From: an uncultured Candidatus Saccharibacteria bacterium
Lineage (GTDB): Bacteria; Patescibacteriota; Minisyncoccia; SW-4-49-11
Assembly (NCBI GenBank): GCA_964585065.1
Contig: CAZPCB010000001.1
Location: 162,866 to 226,865 of the forward strand
Length of the DNA: 64,000 nt
Reading direction: 5' to 3'
Below are positions 66 through 60,851 of the stretch, one piece after another (within the stretch, counting starts at the first letter, position 1; each line of letters starts with the position of its first letter). A program made the position numbers and the translations under genes. The notes beneath the pieces are model-generated. The model had not been told where the DNA came from. It ran no database searches and saw only the letters and a program-made list of their open reading frames with translations.

Positions 66-129
66 TGTTGTAAATTTAGGTAAAGCAACACTACATAACC
101 TTGAGTATCAATCAAAAGTTAAAAAGATG

Positions 130-133
<4 letters not shown>
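66..133 (-). promoter_or_regulatory. 23S precursor processing stem, 3' trailer half (pairs with 3120-3189)
   Basis: Plus 69-83 (gtaaatttaggtaaa) and 121-133 (aaaaagatgagtt) are exact reverse complements of 3175-3189 and 3120-3132. This is the classic RNase III-type stem enclosing the mature rRNA. Confidence 0.7.
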
Positions 134-3119
<2,986 letters not shown>

Positions 3120-3125
<6 letters not shown>

Positions 3126-3189
3126 TCTTTTTAAATTCTGATTTATACTTTTGGTGAAAGTAGTAAAATTGCATTTACCTAAATTTACT
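3120..3189 (-). promoter_or_regulatory. 23S precursor processing stem, 5' leader half
   Basis: Complementary to 69-83 and 121-133 (15 and 13 nt exact). Confidence 0.7.
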
Positions 3190-3311
3190 TGTGAATGAAC
3201 CCTCTTATAGAAACAGATGATAATATCTCAAAGGTTGAACTTTAAGAGGTCATCTCTGTCGCCATATTGCTCCGTAGGTGAGCTGAGTGTGAAGTTGCGA
3301 GTACGATATTT

Positions 3312-3450: not shown

Positions 3451-3479
3451 AAGAAAAAACCCACCGACGAATCGGTGGG
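3451..3479 (-). terminator. Rho-independent terminator downstream of CDS 3500-4111
   Basis: Hairpin cccaccga-cgaa-tcggtggg (3460-3479) followed on the minus strand by a T-tract (rc of aagaaaaaa 3451-3459). Confidence 0.75.
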
Positions 3480-3499
3480 TTATAAAGGGACTGATTGAC

Positions 3500-4111
3500 T
3501 CAGCTGGTCTTGATGCCCTCAATGGCTTTGATCAGGATCTGGACTTGAGGCCAAATATTGACCTGAAACCATCTCATCCACTGATCAAAGTTCCTCAACA
3601 GCTTTTTTGACTCCGAGTCTAGAGTCGTCACCTGAGGTTGAGGAGCGGGCGGCAGGACCACCGGCGGGAGAGCGGGAGAAGATTGCTCTTGTCCTCGATT
3701 CCCACCAATGGTGATCATCTGGTCGATACCCAGGTCACCAGCAGAAATGGGAGAGTTGTCTCCGATACCGCTGGGCATGGGGTCGAACCCCATAACTCGA
3801 TATTGACCAGAGCGGACACCCTGTGAGGATACCACCCAGGTTGAGGAGAGAAAGTTCTCCTTGAAACCTGGAAGCTTCAAGGGCTGAGGGCGACCATCAT
3901 CCTGAATGAACAGGAAAATCTTGTTCGCGATGGGGCAAGTATTGCCCTGCTCCACACGAACCCGAATGGTGTTATCCACGACATTGTCGCTGATTGACAC
4001 CGACGGAATGCACTCCTGCTGACTCATCAACGAATCTTCTGCCAGAACAGGCATCCCGAGAAGAGATGTTCCGATCATGGTGGAAGCGAGAAGTGTCTTG
4101 AGAACGGACAT
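3500..4111 (-). CDS. Secreted hypothetical protein (signal peptide MSVLKTLLASTMIGTSLLGMPVLA). Coding sequence is ~50% GC versus ~30% in flanks.
   Basis: Long ORF. Start chosen at the internal Met that begins a signal-peptide-like segment (the ORF track allows 4177). Pro/Gln-rich linker. No recognisable domain. Confidence 0.55.
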   Translation of the reverse strand: MSVLKTLLASTMIGTSLLGMPVLAEDSLMSQQECIPSVSISDNVVDNTIRVRVEQGNTCPIANKIFLFIQDDGRPQPLKLPGFKENFLSSTWVVSSQGVRSGQYRVMGFDPMPSGIGDNSPISAGDLGIDQMITIGGNRGQEQSSPALPPVVLPPAPQPQVTTLDSESKKLLRNFDQWMRWFQVNIWPQVQILIKAIEGIKTS

Positions 4112-4194
4112 TGTGAAAGGTTCACATACGATATATATATACCATAAAATAGCAAAAATGTCAATAGTTATAGGCATTTATTCAAAACTGTTAT

Positions 4195-30798: not shown

Positions 30799-30882
30799 AT
30801 TTTTATATTATAGCTTTATTTGAGTATAACATATAAGTTATATATACAAAATACTAAATATATGCTATAATATATCTCATTA

Positions 30883-30969
30883 GGAAGTGTGGCTGAGCGG
30901 TTGAAGGCGGCAGTCTTGAAAACTGTTGTAGGTTTACCCCTACCAGAGGTTCGAATCCTCTCACTTCCG
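30883..30969 (+). tRNA. tRNA-Ser (anticodon TGA), type II with long variable arm
   Basis: GGAAGTG acceptor, anticodon loop CTTGAAA, variable hairpin GTAGG..CCTAC, T-arm AGAGG-TTCGAAT-CCTCT. No CCA encoded. Confidence 0.9.
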
Positions 30970-31157
30970 CATATATTTTTATCTTTTGGTATTTATGCCA
31001 AAAGATAAAAATAATATTTGAAGAAGTGACAGAGAGCAATAGCATTGCTCTCGTGAGGATGAGAAAGTCGGAGCCCGGTGTGAGTTTGTGCTATGCACAA
31101 GGCGAACACGGCGAGACGGGGTCGCGAGAATTTTCCGTCAGGAAAATTACTTGTGAC

Positions 31158-31176
31158 CGAATCCTCTCACTTCCGC
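31158..31176 (+). repeat. 19-bp exact direct repeat of the tRNA-Ser(TGA) 3' end (att-like)
   Basis: cgaatcctctcacttccgc is identical at 30952-30970 and 31158-31176. The intervening 187 bp is GC-richer and contains hairpins (30977-31010; 31031-31052). Confidence 0.7.
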
Positions 31177-31210
31177 TAAAATTCTATATATTAGAATACA
31201 TAATATCTAT

Positions 31211-31624
31211 ATGTCAAAAAAGTTATTTCATGGCTCTTGCCACTGTGCTCGAATAAAGTATGATCTGTATTTAGACGTAAACCATCATACCAATAAATGT
31301 AATTGTACATTTTGTCAAAAAAATTCTTTTTGGTCTGCCAAAGTGCCTATATCAGATTTTGTATTACATAAAAATCAAGAGACCAAGAAAGTATATACAA
31401 ACGGTATAGAGTATGGATATTTTGTATTTTGCGACCATTGTGGTTGTATGTTATTTGGCTACTCGCCTAAATCAGATTGGGGGGAAGAATGCTACTCGAT
31501 CAGAATCCATACGATTGATGATATTTCAATTGAAGAAATGAATACCATGCCGATCAAATATTACGACGGAAAGTCTGATACGTGGGCAGAAATTACCGAT
31601 CTAGAAATTATTAAAACATTATGA
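31211..31624 (+). CDS. GFA (glutathione-dependent formaldehyde-activating / CENP-V-like) family zinc protein
   Basis: HGSCHC..........C.C..C.K....DHCGC Cys pattern. Confidence 0.55.
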   Translation: MSKKLFHGSCHCARIKYDLYLDVNHHTNKCNCTFCQKNSFWSAKVPISDFVLHKNQETKKVYTNGIEYGYFVFCDHCGCMLFGYSPKSDWGEECYSIRIHTIDDISIEEMNTMPIKYYDGKSDTWAEITDLEIIKTL

Positions 31625-55430: not shown

Positions 55431-55480
55431 AAAGAAAGAGCTTGATAAGCTCTTTCTTTTGTTTATTTTGGCTGTGTTTT
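55431..55480 (+). terminator. Rho-independent terminator of the nitroreductase gene
   Basis: aaagaaagagctt-gata-agctctttcttt followed by tgtttatttt. Confidence 0.75.
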
Positions 55481-55656
55481 TTGGACGAAGTTCGAACTTT
55501 TTTTGAGCAAAAACCCCAATAAGGAAGCGGGCAGGCAAAAATTTCTTCCCCCCAAACCCCTTCCTTTGTTCCCGCCTGCTTGGGCTTCGCCCCCAAAACT
55601 TTTCGGCGGACGGAATTTGAGGCTGTGCCAATTTCATTGGCGCGCCGCCTAAAATT

Positions 55657-58600
55657 TTAAACTTGTTTCGTGCCTCGACAGTATGGAAATTTTGAACAAC
55701 CATAAAATTTTCCATATCTGCCTTTGCGCAAAATCATTTTTGATCCGCACTTAGGACAGGTCTTATCACTCGAAACTGCAGGGCTATCTTTAATATTATC
55801 ACTCACAGACTTTTCAACCAAGGTATAGCCCTTGCAATGACAGCAAAATCGTCCGTATCCAGTAATTAAGTCTGGGTCTCTAAAATCTTTGTATTCCCTT
55901 ATTTCTTTACATTTCGGGCATTCTTTCATCTCGCCATTTTGCAAACCCTCAATCGTTTCGTGAATGTGACTAATTACATTATTTTTTACAACACCATTTT
56001 TAATCAAGTTGCCGATTCTTTCATTAAGATTTGAAATCGGATCGTTGCCAATGTTGAATTTGTTTATTCGCAAAAATTTATATCCATAGCTTTCCAATAC
56101 TTTTTGTCTATAAACATCTCCGTCGGTGTAATAATCTTGGTAATTAAATTCGTTTACCTCATCAACATCTTTGAAGTGTTCCCTAAATCCGTCATATTCA
56201 ATTATGACTTTGTGTTCTTGGTGGGTCTCATCCTTGAAGACTAACAAAAAATCAACTTTATAATTCGGGTGGTTATATGTTTTATCAAACTGTTTCAAAT
56301 ATTTACCAAGCTCAAATTGTGGAATAAATTCTATATTGTCTTTATTTTTCTTCCAGAAGTCAGTTTGATAAAACCAGTTCATAACCTCTGGTTCCATTTT
56401 TGACTTCTCATCAGCTTCGCTAATGCTTCGTTCTTTTTTCGCTTCGTTCAAAATAAAAGAGTAATGCCTTATTGCCTCACCAATTGAGCCGTTGTATTTA
56501 TCAATCGGCTTACTTAAAACAAAGTTCATCGTTTCTTTGGCACGACTAAAGCCAACATTTAATCTCTGGGCTTTTATTTTTCCGTCTTCTTCAATATCAA
56601 CATCGTTCAAATCTTTAATGAAAACACCCCACAAATGATCATCTTCTTCTGTTGCAACCATTGAATAATATATAATATCCCTTTCTTCACCTTGGCAGGT
56701 GTCGAAAGTCATAATTTTTAATTTTAACTTGTCGTAAAAATAATCCTTTTCTGGAATTTTGCTTATTAACTCGACAAGCAATTTTTGCTGATTGGTGTGG
56801 GGTGTAATAATTCCAACACTTTGATTGCTATCAATTTCTTTTAATTTTTTCAGTTCGGAAATTATAAATTCAACTTCAAGCGTGTTGGTATTTTGTGCTA
56901 ATTCTTTTTTCCCGTCATGCTTAACAAAAGAAAACTTAATAACGTCGTCAATAGCTTTCCCTCTAATTTTCATCACTTGTAAGCTGTCTCGATAAAAATA
57001 TTTGTTAGAGTAGGAAATAATCTCTTTATACCCTCTAAAATGTTTTAGCAGTTGAGCGTTATAATTTGTTATAAATTCAAAAAACTCAAGAATAGAAGTT
57101 TTGATATTAAACTTCCCGAGTTTTACGAGGTTTATTCCTTCGCTTGAAACATTTTTAACAAAACAATCCCTGAGATTATTTAAATATTCTCTGTTTGTAT
57201 CGGTGCGAGCTTGAGCAGTTTTTACATTACTAAATTGTTTTTTGTCTCCAAGAATCAAAATCTTTTTTGCACGCAACAAAGCAGGAAATGCTTGGGCAAT
57301 GCTAACCTGCGAAGCCTCATCAATAATCACAAGGTCAAAAATCTCTGGCTCAAGCGGTATGTATTCCGCATAATCTCTTATTCCTGCCAATATACAAGGG
57401 AATGCTTCTTTAAGCTTCAAAAATTCATCTTTCGGGAATCTTTGTTTTGTTCGGATTATATCTCTTAGCGCTTTTGCAGTCGCTTTATTGTTTTGATAAA
57501 AATCAATCAATCGTCCGTCCAAAAGAAAAGTCATTTGAGCGGTAACAAGTGCCTCAATATTTTTCTTTTGACCAGCATAATTAAGTGTGGGAATACTATT
57601 AAAATCTTTCTCAACTTTCTGCTTCAAATTTATAAACCTGATCAATGTGTCAAAGTCGAGATCTGAAATTTTTACTAATTCATTTGAGCAAAAAGTTTTA
57701 AAAGAACCCAAATCAATTTTAAGTTTTTTTATTGTATTCGGGTATTTTGGCAAATTTGTATTTAAGAATTTTAAATCATCGCCAATTTGCATTAGGTTGT
57801 TTAATACACCTAAAAGCGAATCGTCATTTATTGTCTGATGAATAAATCTTAAATAATCAAAATTGATCTGATATTTTTCGTCCAATTTTGCCTTTAGTTC
57901 TTCGGCAAATTGATAAATTCCTAAAACTATTTTCAAATCCTCTAAATTTTTATGCGCTTCAATTTCCGAAGTTATGCTAAAAGATTTTTTAAATTCCTTG
58001 TCTAAATTTTCAATTTTTTCTTTTTTAAACGCATAGCCGAAAAGCCAATTTTTCTCTTTTTCGTAATTGCTTATAAAATCTCTTAATTTTTCTAACGAGG
58101 GCTCGTCAAAATTATCGAATGTTGACAATAGCACCAAATTATTGGTGTAAACTTCTTTAATTTTAGCAACAGAAGAAGAAAGGATATTTAATAACCACAA
58201 ATATTTTTGAAAGTTGGATATGTCTTTGAAGTCATTGATTGAAAAATTGAGCAATTCGAAAAGTTTTGCTTCTTTTTCTTTCTCGTCCTGATCAATAATA
58301 AGTTTATCTTTTAGCGACAAAAATATTTTTTTAAACTCTTCAAGCTCAATCGCTGATTCCGTTTGATTTAGAACCTCTTCAATTTCAACGGGGAAACCCT
58401 TATTTACATAATAGGATTCCAAGTCAAATAACTCGTGAATTTCTTTTAAATCAATTTCCTCATAAGCCAATATTTCGGCTTGTAAATCTTCCTTAAGTGT
58501 ATTGCCTGATTTTTCAATATTGCTCTCAAGTGTTCCATAATCTTTTTTAACGGCTCGATAATGCGTTTTAATATTTTCTACAGCTGTGGTTGCTAAGATT

Positions 58601-60583: not shown

Positions 60584-60610
60584 TGGCGGAGAGAAAGGGA
60601 TTACGAACCC
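60584..60610 (-). repeat. 26/27-nt direct repeat of the tRNA-Ser(GCT) 3' end (att-like), 150 bp downstream of the tRNA
   Basis: tggcggagagaaagggatt(a)cgaaccc at 60584-60610 versus 60761-60786. Intervening DNA carries hairpins ttgaaacc-gagt-ggtttcaa, gcaaat-ccc-atttgc, cgggaaac-ggga-gtttcccg and a T-arm-like palindrome ggattcgaatcc. Confidence 0.7.
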
Positions 60611-60760
60611 ATCGCAAATGGGATTTGCTCCTTGAAACCACTCGGTTTCAATACATCCTCCACGGGAAACTCCCGTTTCCCGACCCCTTCCCTGGATTCG
60701 AATCCCTTTTTACTAACTCCCAGAAATTAAAAACAGGGATATTATCCCTATTCTTAATTT

Positions 60761-60851
60761 TGGCGGAGAGAAAGGGATTCGAACCCTTGATAAGTTTTAC
60801 CCTATGCCACGTTAGCAGTGTGGTGCTTTCGACCAGCTCAGCCATCTCTCC
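60761..60851 (-). tRNA. tRNA-Ser (anticodon GCT), type II, CCA encoded
   Basis: rc: GGAGAGATGGCTGAGCTGGTCGAAAGCACCACACTGCTAACGTGGCATAGGGTAAAACTTATCAAGGGTTCGAATCCCTTTCTCTCCGCCA. Confidence 0.85.

Follow-up and report, generated by a model that had tools for sequence, protein, structure and literature searches.

What does it signify when the 3′ end of a tRNA gene is repeated, letter for letter, a short way downstream of the gene itself? The question is raised by a 64-kb stretch of DNA (contig CAZPCB010000001.1, referred to below as the window, to which all coordinates refer unless a locus is named), in which tRNA-Ser(UGA) is followed by a GC-rich insert and an exact 19-bp copy of its own 3′ end. 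An earlier note on this DNA had favoured the footprint of site-specific integration, with attL and attR bracketing a nearly deleted island, and had offered a tRNA-derived miniature element or small RNA as the alternative. The analysis described here upholds that alternative: the insert, called E1, is probably a member of a family of small, structured RNA modules that occupy the trailers of tRNA genes in Patescibacteria (Candidate Phyla Radiation, CPR) and are built like the RtT RNA of Escherichia coli. This reading is based on the anatomy of the locus, its conservation, its covariation, the matching of its arms to each partner tRNA and its behaviour as a tandem array, all of which are directly observed. 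The comparison of sequences indicates a new structured RNA family of RtT-like architecture that is widespread in CPR bacteria.

Anatomy of the locus behind tRNA-Ser(UGA)

ARAGORN and Rfam agree on the position and strand of the tRNA (Table 1). The repeat, CGAATCCTCTCACTTCCGC, has exactly two occurrences in the 64-kb window, which start at 30952 and 31158 on the forward strand. The first copy is part of the tRNA itself, spanning C56 of the T-loop, the 3′ strands of the T-stem and the acceptor stem, the discriminator G and one further base; a chance origin for a 19-nt repeat at a distance of 206 bp is negligible.

The details described previously between the two copies were recovered. The AT-rich hairpin is present, with 14 bp (30976-30989 paired with 30998-31011) rather than the 13 reported, the perfect GC hairpin was found, and the insert is indeed rich in GC, reaching 57% in 100-nt windows over 31012-31190 against 34.5% for the window as a whole. 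E1 starts 52 nt after the end of the tRNA and its core 96 nt after it, on the same strand. The segment 31018-31179 folds with -69.7 kcal/mol (z = -6.3; none of 200 shuffled sequences was as good), and in the minimum free energy (MFE) fold the GAAGUGA of the 5′ end pairs with the copied acceptor strand, as the note had surmised, and GAGGAU with the copied T-stem strand. The A1-C72 mismatch of this acceptor-like helix is replaced by an A-U pair in two loci of relatives, designated L034 and L060, where the 3′ end reads CACUUCU. Hairpin P0 stands at the position of a tRNA D-arm, and P0-like hairpins ((A)GCAAUAG...CUAUUGCU) stand at the equivalent place behind other tRNAs, for example in L051, L062 and L066. 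The core itself comprises a GAGAAA junction, P2 (GUC/GAC), a GGAG/CGAG internal loop, P3 (GUGU/ACAC), hairpin P4 and a long hairpin P5 with a GUCA loop. Upstream of the tRNA lies a promoter-like site whose motif, ATGCTATAATATA, also precedes the tRNA in relatives and which, judged by its sequence, is likely to be the promoter of a tRNA-E1 transcription unit.

Table 1. Features of the two tRNA-Ser loci of the window, and diverged family members on other contigs
Feature	Location	Strand	Evidence or remark
Promoter-like site TATACA, 17 nt, TG-TATAAT	30843..30871	+	Consensus scan, 10/12 matches; just 5′ of tRNA-Ser(UGA)
tRNA-Ser(UGA), no CCA encoded	30883..30970	+	ARAGORN; Rfam tRNA model 57.3 bits
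Repeat copy 1, 3′ part of tRNA-Ser(UGA) itself	30952..30970	+	Exact 19-mer
AT-rich spacer hairpin, 14 bp, no U-tract after it	30976..31011	+	Sequence and fold
E1 RNA module, ~155 nt	31022..31176	+	
Acceptor-like helix, 5′ strand AGAAGUGA	31022..31029	+	Pairs with UCACUUC(C) of repeat copy 2 in MFE fold
P0, perfect 9-bp hairpin GAGAGCAAT-AGC-ATTGCTCTC (RNA GAGAGCAAU-AGC-AUUGCUCUC)	31032..31052	+	At tRNA D-arm position
P1 5′ arm GAGGAU	31055..31060	+	Complements AUCCUC of copied T-loop / T-stem 3′ strand
Conserved core, ~97 nt	31061..31157	+	Alignment A1, RNAalifold structure, pair counts, model R1 129 bits
Repeat copy 2, 3′ strand of P1 and acceptor-like helix	31158..31176	+	First 19 nt of second tandem unit
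E2, second trailing structured RNA	60584..60720	-	Fold z = -3.9
Terminator-like hairpin AGGGAU-AAU-AUCCCU + U run	60730..60754	-	Between tRNA-Ser(GCU) and E2; putative, read from sequence
tRNA-Ser(GCU), CCA encoded	60761..60851	-	ARAGORN; Rfam 56.1 bits
Diverged member behind tRNA-Glu(UUC)	L017 (Saccharibacteria)		R1 43 bits
Diverged member behind tRNA-Ser(CGA)	L037 (Saccharibacteria)		R1 28 bits
Diverged member behind tRNA-Glu(UUC)	L027 (Campbellbacteria)		R1 33 bits
Diverged members behind tRNA-Glu(UUC) and tRNA-Ser(CGA)	L020 (Paceibacterota)		R1 41 and 24 bits

The insert matches no family of Rfam 15, which returned tRNA matches and noise only when run on the whole window at gathering score and on both tRNA-Ser loci at E ≤ 10; the noise included microRNA-type matches on the AT hairpin. 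The open reading frames (ORFs) that overlap the 187-bp interval between the repeats are chance ones, with no integrase and no ORF remnant among them. An ORF at 31026-31256 was rejected as a coding version of E1, as homologues show single-base indels together with paired compensatory substitutions. Hammerhead and hairpin ribozymes, the P4 element of RNase P, signal recognition particle RNA and the kink-turn were weighed by eye and find no support in Rfam; neither does a guide RNA of the TnpB/IscB type, whose predicted 3′ “guide” is base-paired and undergoes compensatory change in L034 and L060.

Could E1 be a tandem duplicate of the tRNA gene that is decaying without function? Its acceptor 5′ strand differs from that of the tRNA at position 1 only, a hairpin occupies the D-arm position, GAGG/CCUC pair as a T-stem would and the 3′ ends are identical. 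Such a pseudogene is nevertheless highly improbable, since the ~97-nt core has no counterpart in a tRNA and is conserved across tRNAs and CPR classes with compensatory changes, a pattern that contradicts decay. Neither the tRNA model nor ARAGORN scores E1: ARAGORN calls four tRNAs in the window, with no transfer-messenger RNA (tmRNA) and no extra tRNA, and the Rfam tRNA clan has no match on 31022-31176 or on 60584-60720.

Selection for RNA structure

Relatives of E1 were collected from metagenome contigs with a 22-nt pattern of the core, giving 28 loci, two of which are chance hits in high-GC coding DNA. Alignment A1 contains 27 sequences with a mean column identity of 85%; a covariance model, R1, was built and the consensus structure was obtained with RNAalifold. 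This consensus consists of P1, formed by the arm and the tRNA-derived part, P2, the GGAG/CGAG internal loop, P3, hairpin P4 and the long hairpin P5 with its GUCA loop. Standard pairs fill 97.3% of the pair cells, against just 34-49% in controls with a slid register. Double changes affect 11 of the 38 pairs and 60 cells, compared with 6.8 pairs and 19.5 cells in shuffles, and not one of 500 shuffles reaches the observed value. Compensatory changes are found in three of the five pairs of P1, the arm of which varies with the partner tRNA, and the hairpins of relatives show paired substitutions such as UUGUGC/GCACAA for UUGCAC/GUGCAA and AAUUUUCC/GGAAAAUU for AAUUUACC/GGUAAAUU. P2 and P3 are invariant in A1, in part as a result of collecting the sequences with a fixed pattern. 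These patterns of substitution argue that the interior of the insert is selected for RNA structure.

Predicted folds add a second aspect. In the fold of the tRNA plus E1 without the repeat, the arm disrupts the acceptor and T arms of the tRNA, and when the repeat is included the topology is swapped; two topologies are then possible from identical pairs. This could be taken to describe a cis-acting folding switch on the tRNA precursor, whose “anti-tRNA” arm would pair either with the real 3′ half, blocking maturation, or with the decoy copy, permitting it, and whose core would sense a protein or ligand, set the balance and tune the supply of one tRNA. The arm is complementary to positions 56-72 of the partner tRNA in every copy, and a switch would account for the helix being kept as tRNA sequence rather than as any helix, which is otherwise unexplained. 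We nevertheless consider a switch decidedly unlikely. The two states are purely thermodynamic predictions, tRNA folding and processing are quick, the close relatives L018, L025 and L042 do without the module, Rfam scans matched no ligand-like pocket or known aptamer, and the 3′ end of the copy in L037 differs from the neighbouring tRNA.

Distribution and tRNA partners

Contigs that encode an identical GFA-family protein downstream of the locus fall in Paceibacteria (Patescibacteria/CPR) bins and carry the same tRNA-plus-insert. In three relatives (L023, L031 and L033) the spacer hairpin is swapped for an unrelated sequence that still forms a hairpin. The short-read (Logan) contigs L003-L009, which encode the identical GFA protein, all break inside the E1 hairpins, probably as an assembly effect of inverted repeats, and at least three variants of P5 exist among these strains.

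Within the Paceibacteria, the E1 core recurs behind at least ten tRNA species, with Ser-UGA, Ser-GCU, Ser-CGA, Arg-UCG, Leu-UAA, Leu-CAA, Gln-CUG, Gly-UCC and one tRNA cut by a contig end as its partners. Wherever the sequence upstream of a related copy can be read, it contains a tRNA on the same strand that ends 43-98 nt before the core starts, and where the junction can be located the repeat starts at C56 of the T-loop, 19 nt before the end of the tRNA (GUGAC|CGAAUCC, GUGAC|CAAGUCC and others). Each copy ends in the 3′ part of its own tRNA and begins with an arm complementary to that part. The 5′ arm tracks the partner, appearing as GAGGAU, GAGGGAU, CAGGGC, GGGACUUG or GGGGUUCG, and in many copies a stretch of 5-9 nt that lies upstream of P0 complements the acceptor 3′ strand as well.

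Both occupied and empty sites, the comparison that the earlier note had proposed, are found. When one genome per species was scanned for the 19-mer, the double arrangement appeared in seven species of the Paceibacteria group and additionally in L034, where the copy ends in CACTTCTGC; the same scan found the identical tRNA with no insert in three species (L018, L025 and L042), and in L018 and L025 the gene downstream is the one found in the occupied L031.

The family reaches beyond these close relatives. R1 matches E1 alone in the window; a weak hit of both E1 covariance models at 15-115 on the reverse strand, just 3′ of the 23S rRNA gene (12.7-14.5 bits, E 0.06-0.5), is probably chance. Diverged members (Table 1) are associated with a divergently oriented tRNA-Glu(UUC)/tRNA-Ser(CGA) pair that is conserved from Saccharibacteria to Paceibacteria (L017, L020, L021, L027 and L037). 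A structured element trails at least one tRNA of the pair in all five loci, and both tRNAs in L020, L021 and L037. What is retained at this depth is G[U/G]CGGAG ... CGAG[A/C]CG[G/A]GG[U/A]C, a hairpin, GACC and the tRNA 3′ part. Scans of IMG/VR with the 19-mer, the E1 core and the E2 core (see below) returned one ordinary phage tRNA-Ser and nothing else. A search for a prior description of such a module in CPR found no relevant literature, and the same was true of recent work on RtT.

Tandem arrays and probable exchange between copies

The left end of the repeat is fixed, as described above, and the right end varies among loci, from 10 to 94 exact bp and up to 157 bp at lower identity. The repeat can extend through the spacer, the arms and part of a second core, with a unit length of 153-207 bp and copy numbers of 1.09-1.99 that are not integers, the highest being found in L050 (1.99), L049 (1.71) and L043 (1.63). 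The window represents the minimal state: the exact repeat gives 1.09 units there, and the extended repeat 1.13. Because the right end varies in this way, the arrangement is best described as a tandem array with an arbitrary end and not as an att pair. In the organization that we propose, tRNA positions 1-55 would be followed by n units of tRNA position 56 to end, spacer, 5′ arms and core, with n = 1.09 here; only the first 19 nt of the second unit are present, and it is these that appear as an “exact copy of the tRNA 3′ end”. Paralogous copies would recombine unequally and convert one another, expanding, shrinking, deleting and homogenising the array.

The variable boundary bears directly on the integration footprint favoured in the earlier note, according to which the repeats are attL and attR of a tyrosine-integrase island that was lost almost completely, leaving a remnant resembling a cis-mobilizable element (CIME). 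There is a likeness to tRNA islands: a direct repeat of the stretch from T-loop to tRNA 3′ end, which is a classical sublocation of integrases, flanks a segment that follows directly on an intact tRNA, some sites are occupied and others empty, and in L054 another element, with inverted ends of ~70 bp, did insert exactly at the tRNA-like end. There are also differences. The repeat is supplied by the target, changing with the partner tRNA (Ser, Arg, Leu, Gln and Gly, and Glu for diverged members) while the interior stays constant, so that no att site is borne by the element; its length is variable and its units are tandem; the interior is a conserved structured RNA with covariation; recombination genes and coding remnants are lacking between the repeats, no integrase is present, and the core has no hits in IMG/VR. 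An att remnant is therefore scarcely credible. The note had counted a 19-mer repeated many times through the genome, or an ancient arrangement conserved in relatives with no length polymorphism, as evidence against integration. Each of these proved true in part: the arrangement is conserved in relatives, and polymorphism of presence and of copy number is also seen. In practical terms, partial tRNA 3′ copies downstream of tRNA genes need not signal integrated islands.

Comparison of the cores reveals that they fail to cluster by partner tRNA. L032 (Ser-UGA) and L052 (Ser-GCU) differ by a single nucleotide, and the Leu-CAA (L051) and Leu-UAA copies of one contig have identical cores and different arms. 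L001 and L002 share an identical flanking protein with the window, and yet their Ser-UGA cores are further from the window core than Leu cores are; the core of L002 is a mosaic of two P5 variants in which one pair is broken. These sequence relationships point to exchange between copies, which may have come about by gene conversion among paralogous cores or by re-insertion.

The same observations might be explained by a selfish, non-autonomous mobile element that inserts into, or is copied onto, the T-loop of tRNAs, duplicates the 3′ end of its target and rides on strong tRNA promoters, its RNA structure helping the element itself to propagate, by way of an RNA or a circular intermediate for instance. 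We regard such an element as possible but unlikely. One core behind at least ten tRNA species with the junction always at C56, flanks that are both target-specific (in L051, 9 nt complement the Leu-CAA acceptor strand), a core in L051 identical to that of the Leu-UAA copy on the same contig, presence or absence at orthologous sites, tandem concatemers with partial last units and clustering of cores independent of the tRNA partner are all features that a mobile element would produce. However, no transposase, integrase or reverse transcriptase is linked to the module in those loci that were inspected (some loci, with no systematic search for proteins), the exact duplication, at 10-94 bp, is unlike the work of a fixed-stagger transposase, and the terminal “inverted repeats” differ from site to site; in a miniature inverted-repeat or other DNA transposon the terminal complementarity would not be drawn, as it is in E1, from each target tRNA. 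Copies on the same contig can be diverged paralogues with compensatory changes (L056 and L062), and the tRNA-Glu/tRNA-Ser(CGA) pair is conserved with its trailing copies across CPR classes, which suggests old, vertically kept copies. Gene conversion confined to homologous cores would also account for identical cores with different arms.

Several observations on individual loci may be recorded here. In L054, on the reverse strand, two tandem E1 copies are separated by a 1.6-kb element with terminal inverted repeats of ~70 bp and, by eye, a gene of the helix-turn-helix family; the element is inserted precisely behind CACTTCCGC, the tRNA-like end of the first copy, and the tRNA-like end may thus be an insertion target for other mobile DNA. 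In L031 a solo fragment on the reverse strand (3204-3240 of that locus), made up of GTGAC, the last 5 nt of the core, and the 19-mer, lies 786 bp beyond E1, with a tRNA-type promoter motif immediately before it, and resembles what would remain of a second tRNA-E1 unit after deletion of the stretch from tRNA position 1 through the end of the core. The VIT1-to-GFA intergenic region of L001 (2390-2560) is 281 bp longer than in the window and L002, and small palindromes (ccccctttggaggggg, cctcctccaaaggaggac) form a GC-rich block within this addition, which lies upstream of the tRNA-Ser(UGA) promoter; palindromes like them flank E2-type cores in L018 and L049.

Comparison with RtT RNA and other tRNA-linked systems

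E. coli has been known since about 1980 to carry the RtT repeats in its tyrT operon, and they are still a functional curiosity. The 178-bp repeat was reportedly described around 1978-1981, and the rtT RNA is said to have been presented in 1991 as a product of processing with a possible effect on the stringent response. This view of the RNA is restated in a 2024 preprint (10.1101/2024.07.17.603846). We read the tyrT-tyrV locus directly on NC_000913 (a 2-kb stretch), which contains four RtT units (Rfam RF00391), three at a spacing of 178 bp after tyrV and one between tyrT and tyrV. A unit consists of the arm GGGGAAGGAU, complementary to AUCCUUCCCC of tRNA-Tyr, followed by GAGAAG, a GC-rich core, GAGUA and AAUCCUUCCCCCACCACCA.

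The two systems share a common build. RtT and E1 both sit in the trailer or spacer of a tRNA, on the strand of that tRNA, and their units end in a copy of the tRNA 3′ end that begins in the T-loop (AAUCCUUCCCCCACCACCA in RtT; 19 of 19 nt in E1). In both, a 5′ arm pairs with the tRNA-derived 3′ part as a closing helix round a GC-rich core (GAGGAU/AUCCUC and GAAGUGA/UCACUUC in E1; GgGaaGGAU/AUCCuuCcC in the RtT consensus), and the arm-GAUGAGAA junction is common to them, reading GGAUGAGAAG in RtT and GGAUGAGAAAG in E1 with GGAUGAGAA shared. A GCGAGA segment followed by a hairpin and tandem units of non-integer copy number complete the likeness. In contrast, the sequence and fold of the RtT core are unlike those of E1; in the K-12 stretch examined RtT flanks tRNA-Tyr only, whereas the CPR family has at least ten tRNA species as partners and matches its arms to each; the start of the repeat is C56 in the E1 family and A58 in tyrT; and the E. 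coli unit overlaps a small annotated ORF, tpr, whereas single-base indels among E1 copies speak against a coding frame.

The ends of E1, an acceptor-like helix on a T-stem-like helix with a tRNA-type 3′ terminus, also resemble tmRNA, the tRNA-like structures at viral 3′ ends and mascRNA. Unlike these, E1 has no tmRNA or tRNA call, no equivalent of the anticodon arm and no tag reading frame, carries a large domain in the T-loop position and occurs in many copies, each matched to the neighbouring tRNA.

A model for the module

In the reading that we prefer, E1 would be a trailer RNA read from the tRNA promoter and co-transcribed on the same strand. Its 5′ arms, AGAAGUGA and GAGGAU, would pair with the duplicated tRNA 3′ part to give a 13-bp helix like the stack of acceptor and T-stem, with P0 taking the place of the D-arm and the helix clamping the ~97-nt core set in the T-loop position. 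Because this terminus imitates the acceptor/T-stem stack, we infer that tRNA-processing enzymes could act on it, and that RNase P, 3′ trimming and CCA addition might release a stable RNA of ~155 nt as well. The duplicated 3′ part would at the same time offer the 5′ arm an alternative partner, which in silico otherwise invades the 3′ half of the real tRNA.

Several points weigh against this reading. Co-transcription, processing and a stable product are all inferred. A hairpin and U run resembling an intrinsic terminator stand between tRNA and module in L020, L049 and L065, so that expression there would need read-through or a separate promoter. A promoter-like site in the spacer of the window is weak (9/12), and relatives do not preserve it, L023, L031 and L033 having unrelated spacers; a conserved promoter specific to E1 was therefore rejected. 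The acceptor-like helix opens with an A-C mismatch, which is less than ideal for RNase P. The 22-nt retrieval pattern inflates the apparent conservation of the core and leaves P2 and P3 with no informative variation. As for the link to RtT, the Rfam RtT model, which gives the E. coli units 133-138 bits, has no hit in the window at its gathering score (45 bits) nor at E ≤ 10 in 30850-31250, and R1 aligns the four RtT units in register with scores of just 4.0-7.4 bits (E 0.23-2.2). On these sequence scores the homology of E1 and RtT is unproven, and E1 was filed as RtT-like rather than as a member of RtT because the Rfam model fails to score it and the reciprocal test with R1 is weak. The function of RtT is itself unsettled, and the analogy brings no mechanism with it.

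A more speculative step, which we think improbable, is that the modules are programmable partners of single tRNAs, each with an antisense arm against the 3′ half of its own tRNA, a decoy copy that masks the arm and a core that acts as sensor or effector. Were this the case, the cell, or a selfish RNA, could control or exploit a single tRNA species, and a core that moves might have its arms rewritten on the template of each newly targeted tRNA. Should the modules resemble RtT through shared ancestry, or because both converged on a single mechanism, a widespread and undescribed layer of tRNA-linked RNA would extend across Proteobacteria and CPR. The presence in E. coli and in CPR of a trailer RNA clamped by a tRNA 3′ copy and an antisense arm suggests that the design itself is selected. 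The CPR set, with its many copies, many tRNA species, occurrence across classes and covariation, provides a far larger body of comparative data on the role of such RNAs, and the new family, together with E2, would add structured RNA to genomes whose non-coding content is barely charted.

A second module behind tRNA-Ser(GCU)

The other tRNA-Ser of the window had been described as showing the same architecture. The design is indeed alike, but the insert, E2, is not the same RNA. The 19-mer TGGCGGAGAGAAAGGGATT is found at 60584 and 60761, and E2 has AAAGGGAUUCGAA as its 5′ arm, continues through a GC-rich core and closes at the 3′ end with GGGUUCGUAAUCCCUUUCUCUCCGCCA, a near-copy of the T arm, acceptor strand and CCA of tRNA-Ser(GCU). 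Membership of the E1 family was rejected, as two covariance models run with filters off give only 11-13 bits (E about 0.2-1); by sequence E2 appears to share the design of E1 around a core of a different family. That core, GGGGUYGGGAAACGGNAGUUUCCCGUGGAGG ... AGGAGCAAAUCCCAUUUGCGA, recurs in L018, L049 and L066, and the copy in L066 trails tRNA-Asp and ends in the UCCCCGCCA of that tRNA. Structural support for E2 is thin, being drawn from four sequences. The terminator-like hairpin listed between tRNA-Ser(GCU) and E2 was called by no scan. Look-ups of exact proteins around E2 returned matches in the same sample only.

Other features of the window

Two further GC-rich stretches were noted. Beside the 23S rRNA gene (123-3128, reverse strand), positions 3549-4128 reach ~60% GC and contain, by eye, a reverse-strand ORF with a signal-peptide-like start, and a GC-rich terminator hairpin lies near 3459-3484; the stretch looks horizontally acquired. 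Positions 55480-55690 are GC-rich and apparently non-coding, lying mostly just 3′ of a 1526-aa helicase-like ORF that ends at 55657, and their motifs of C and G runs resemble the inverted ends of the 1.6-kb element of L054.

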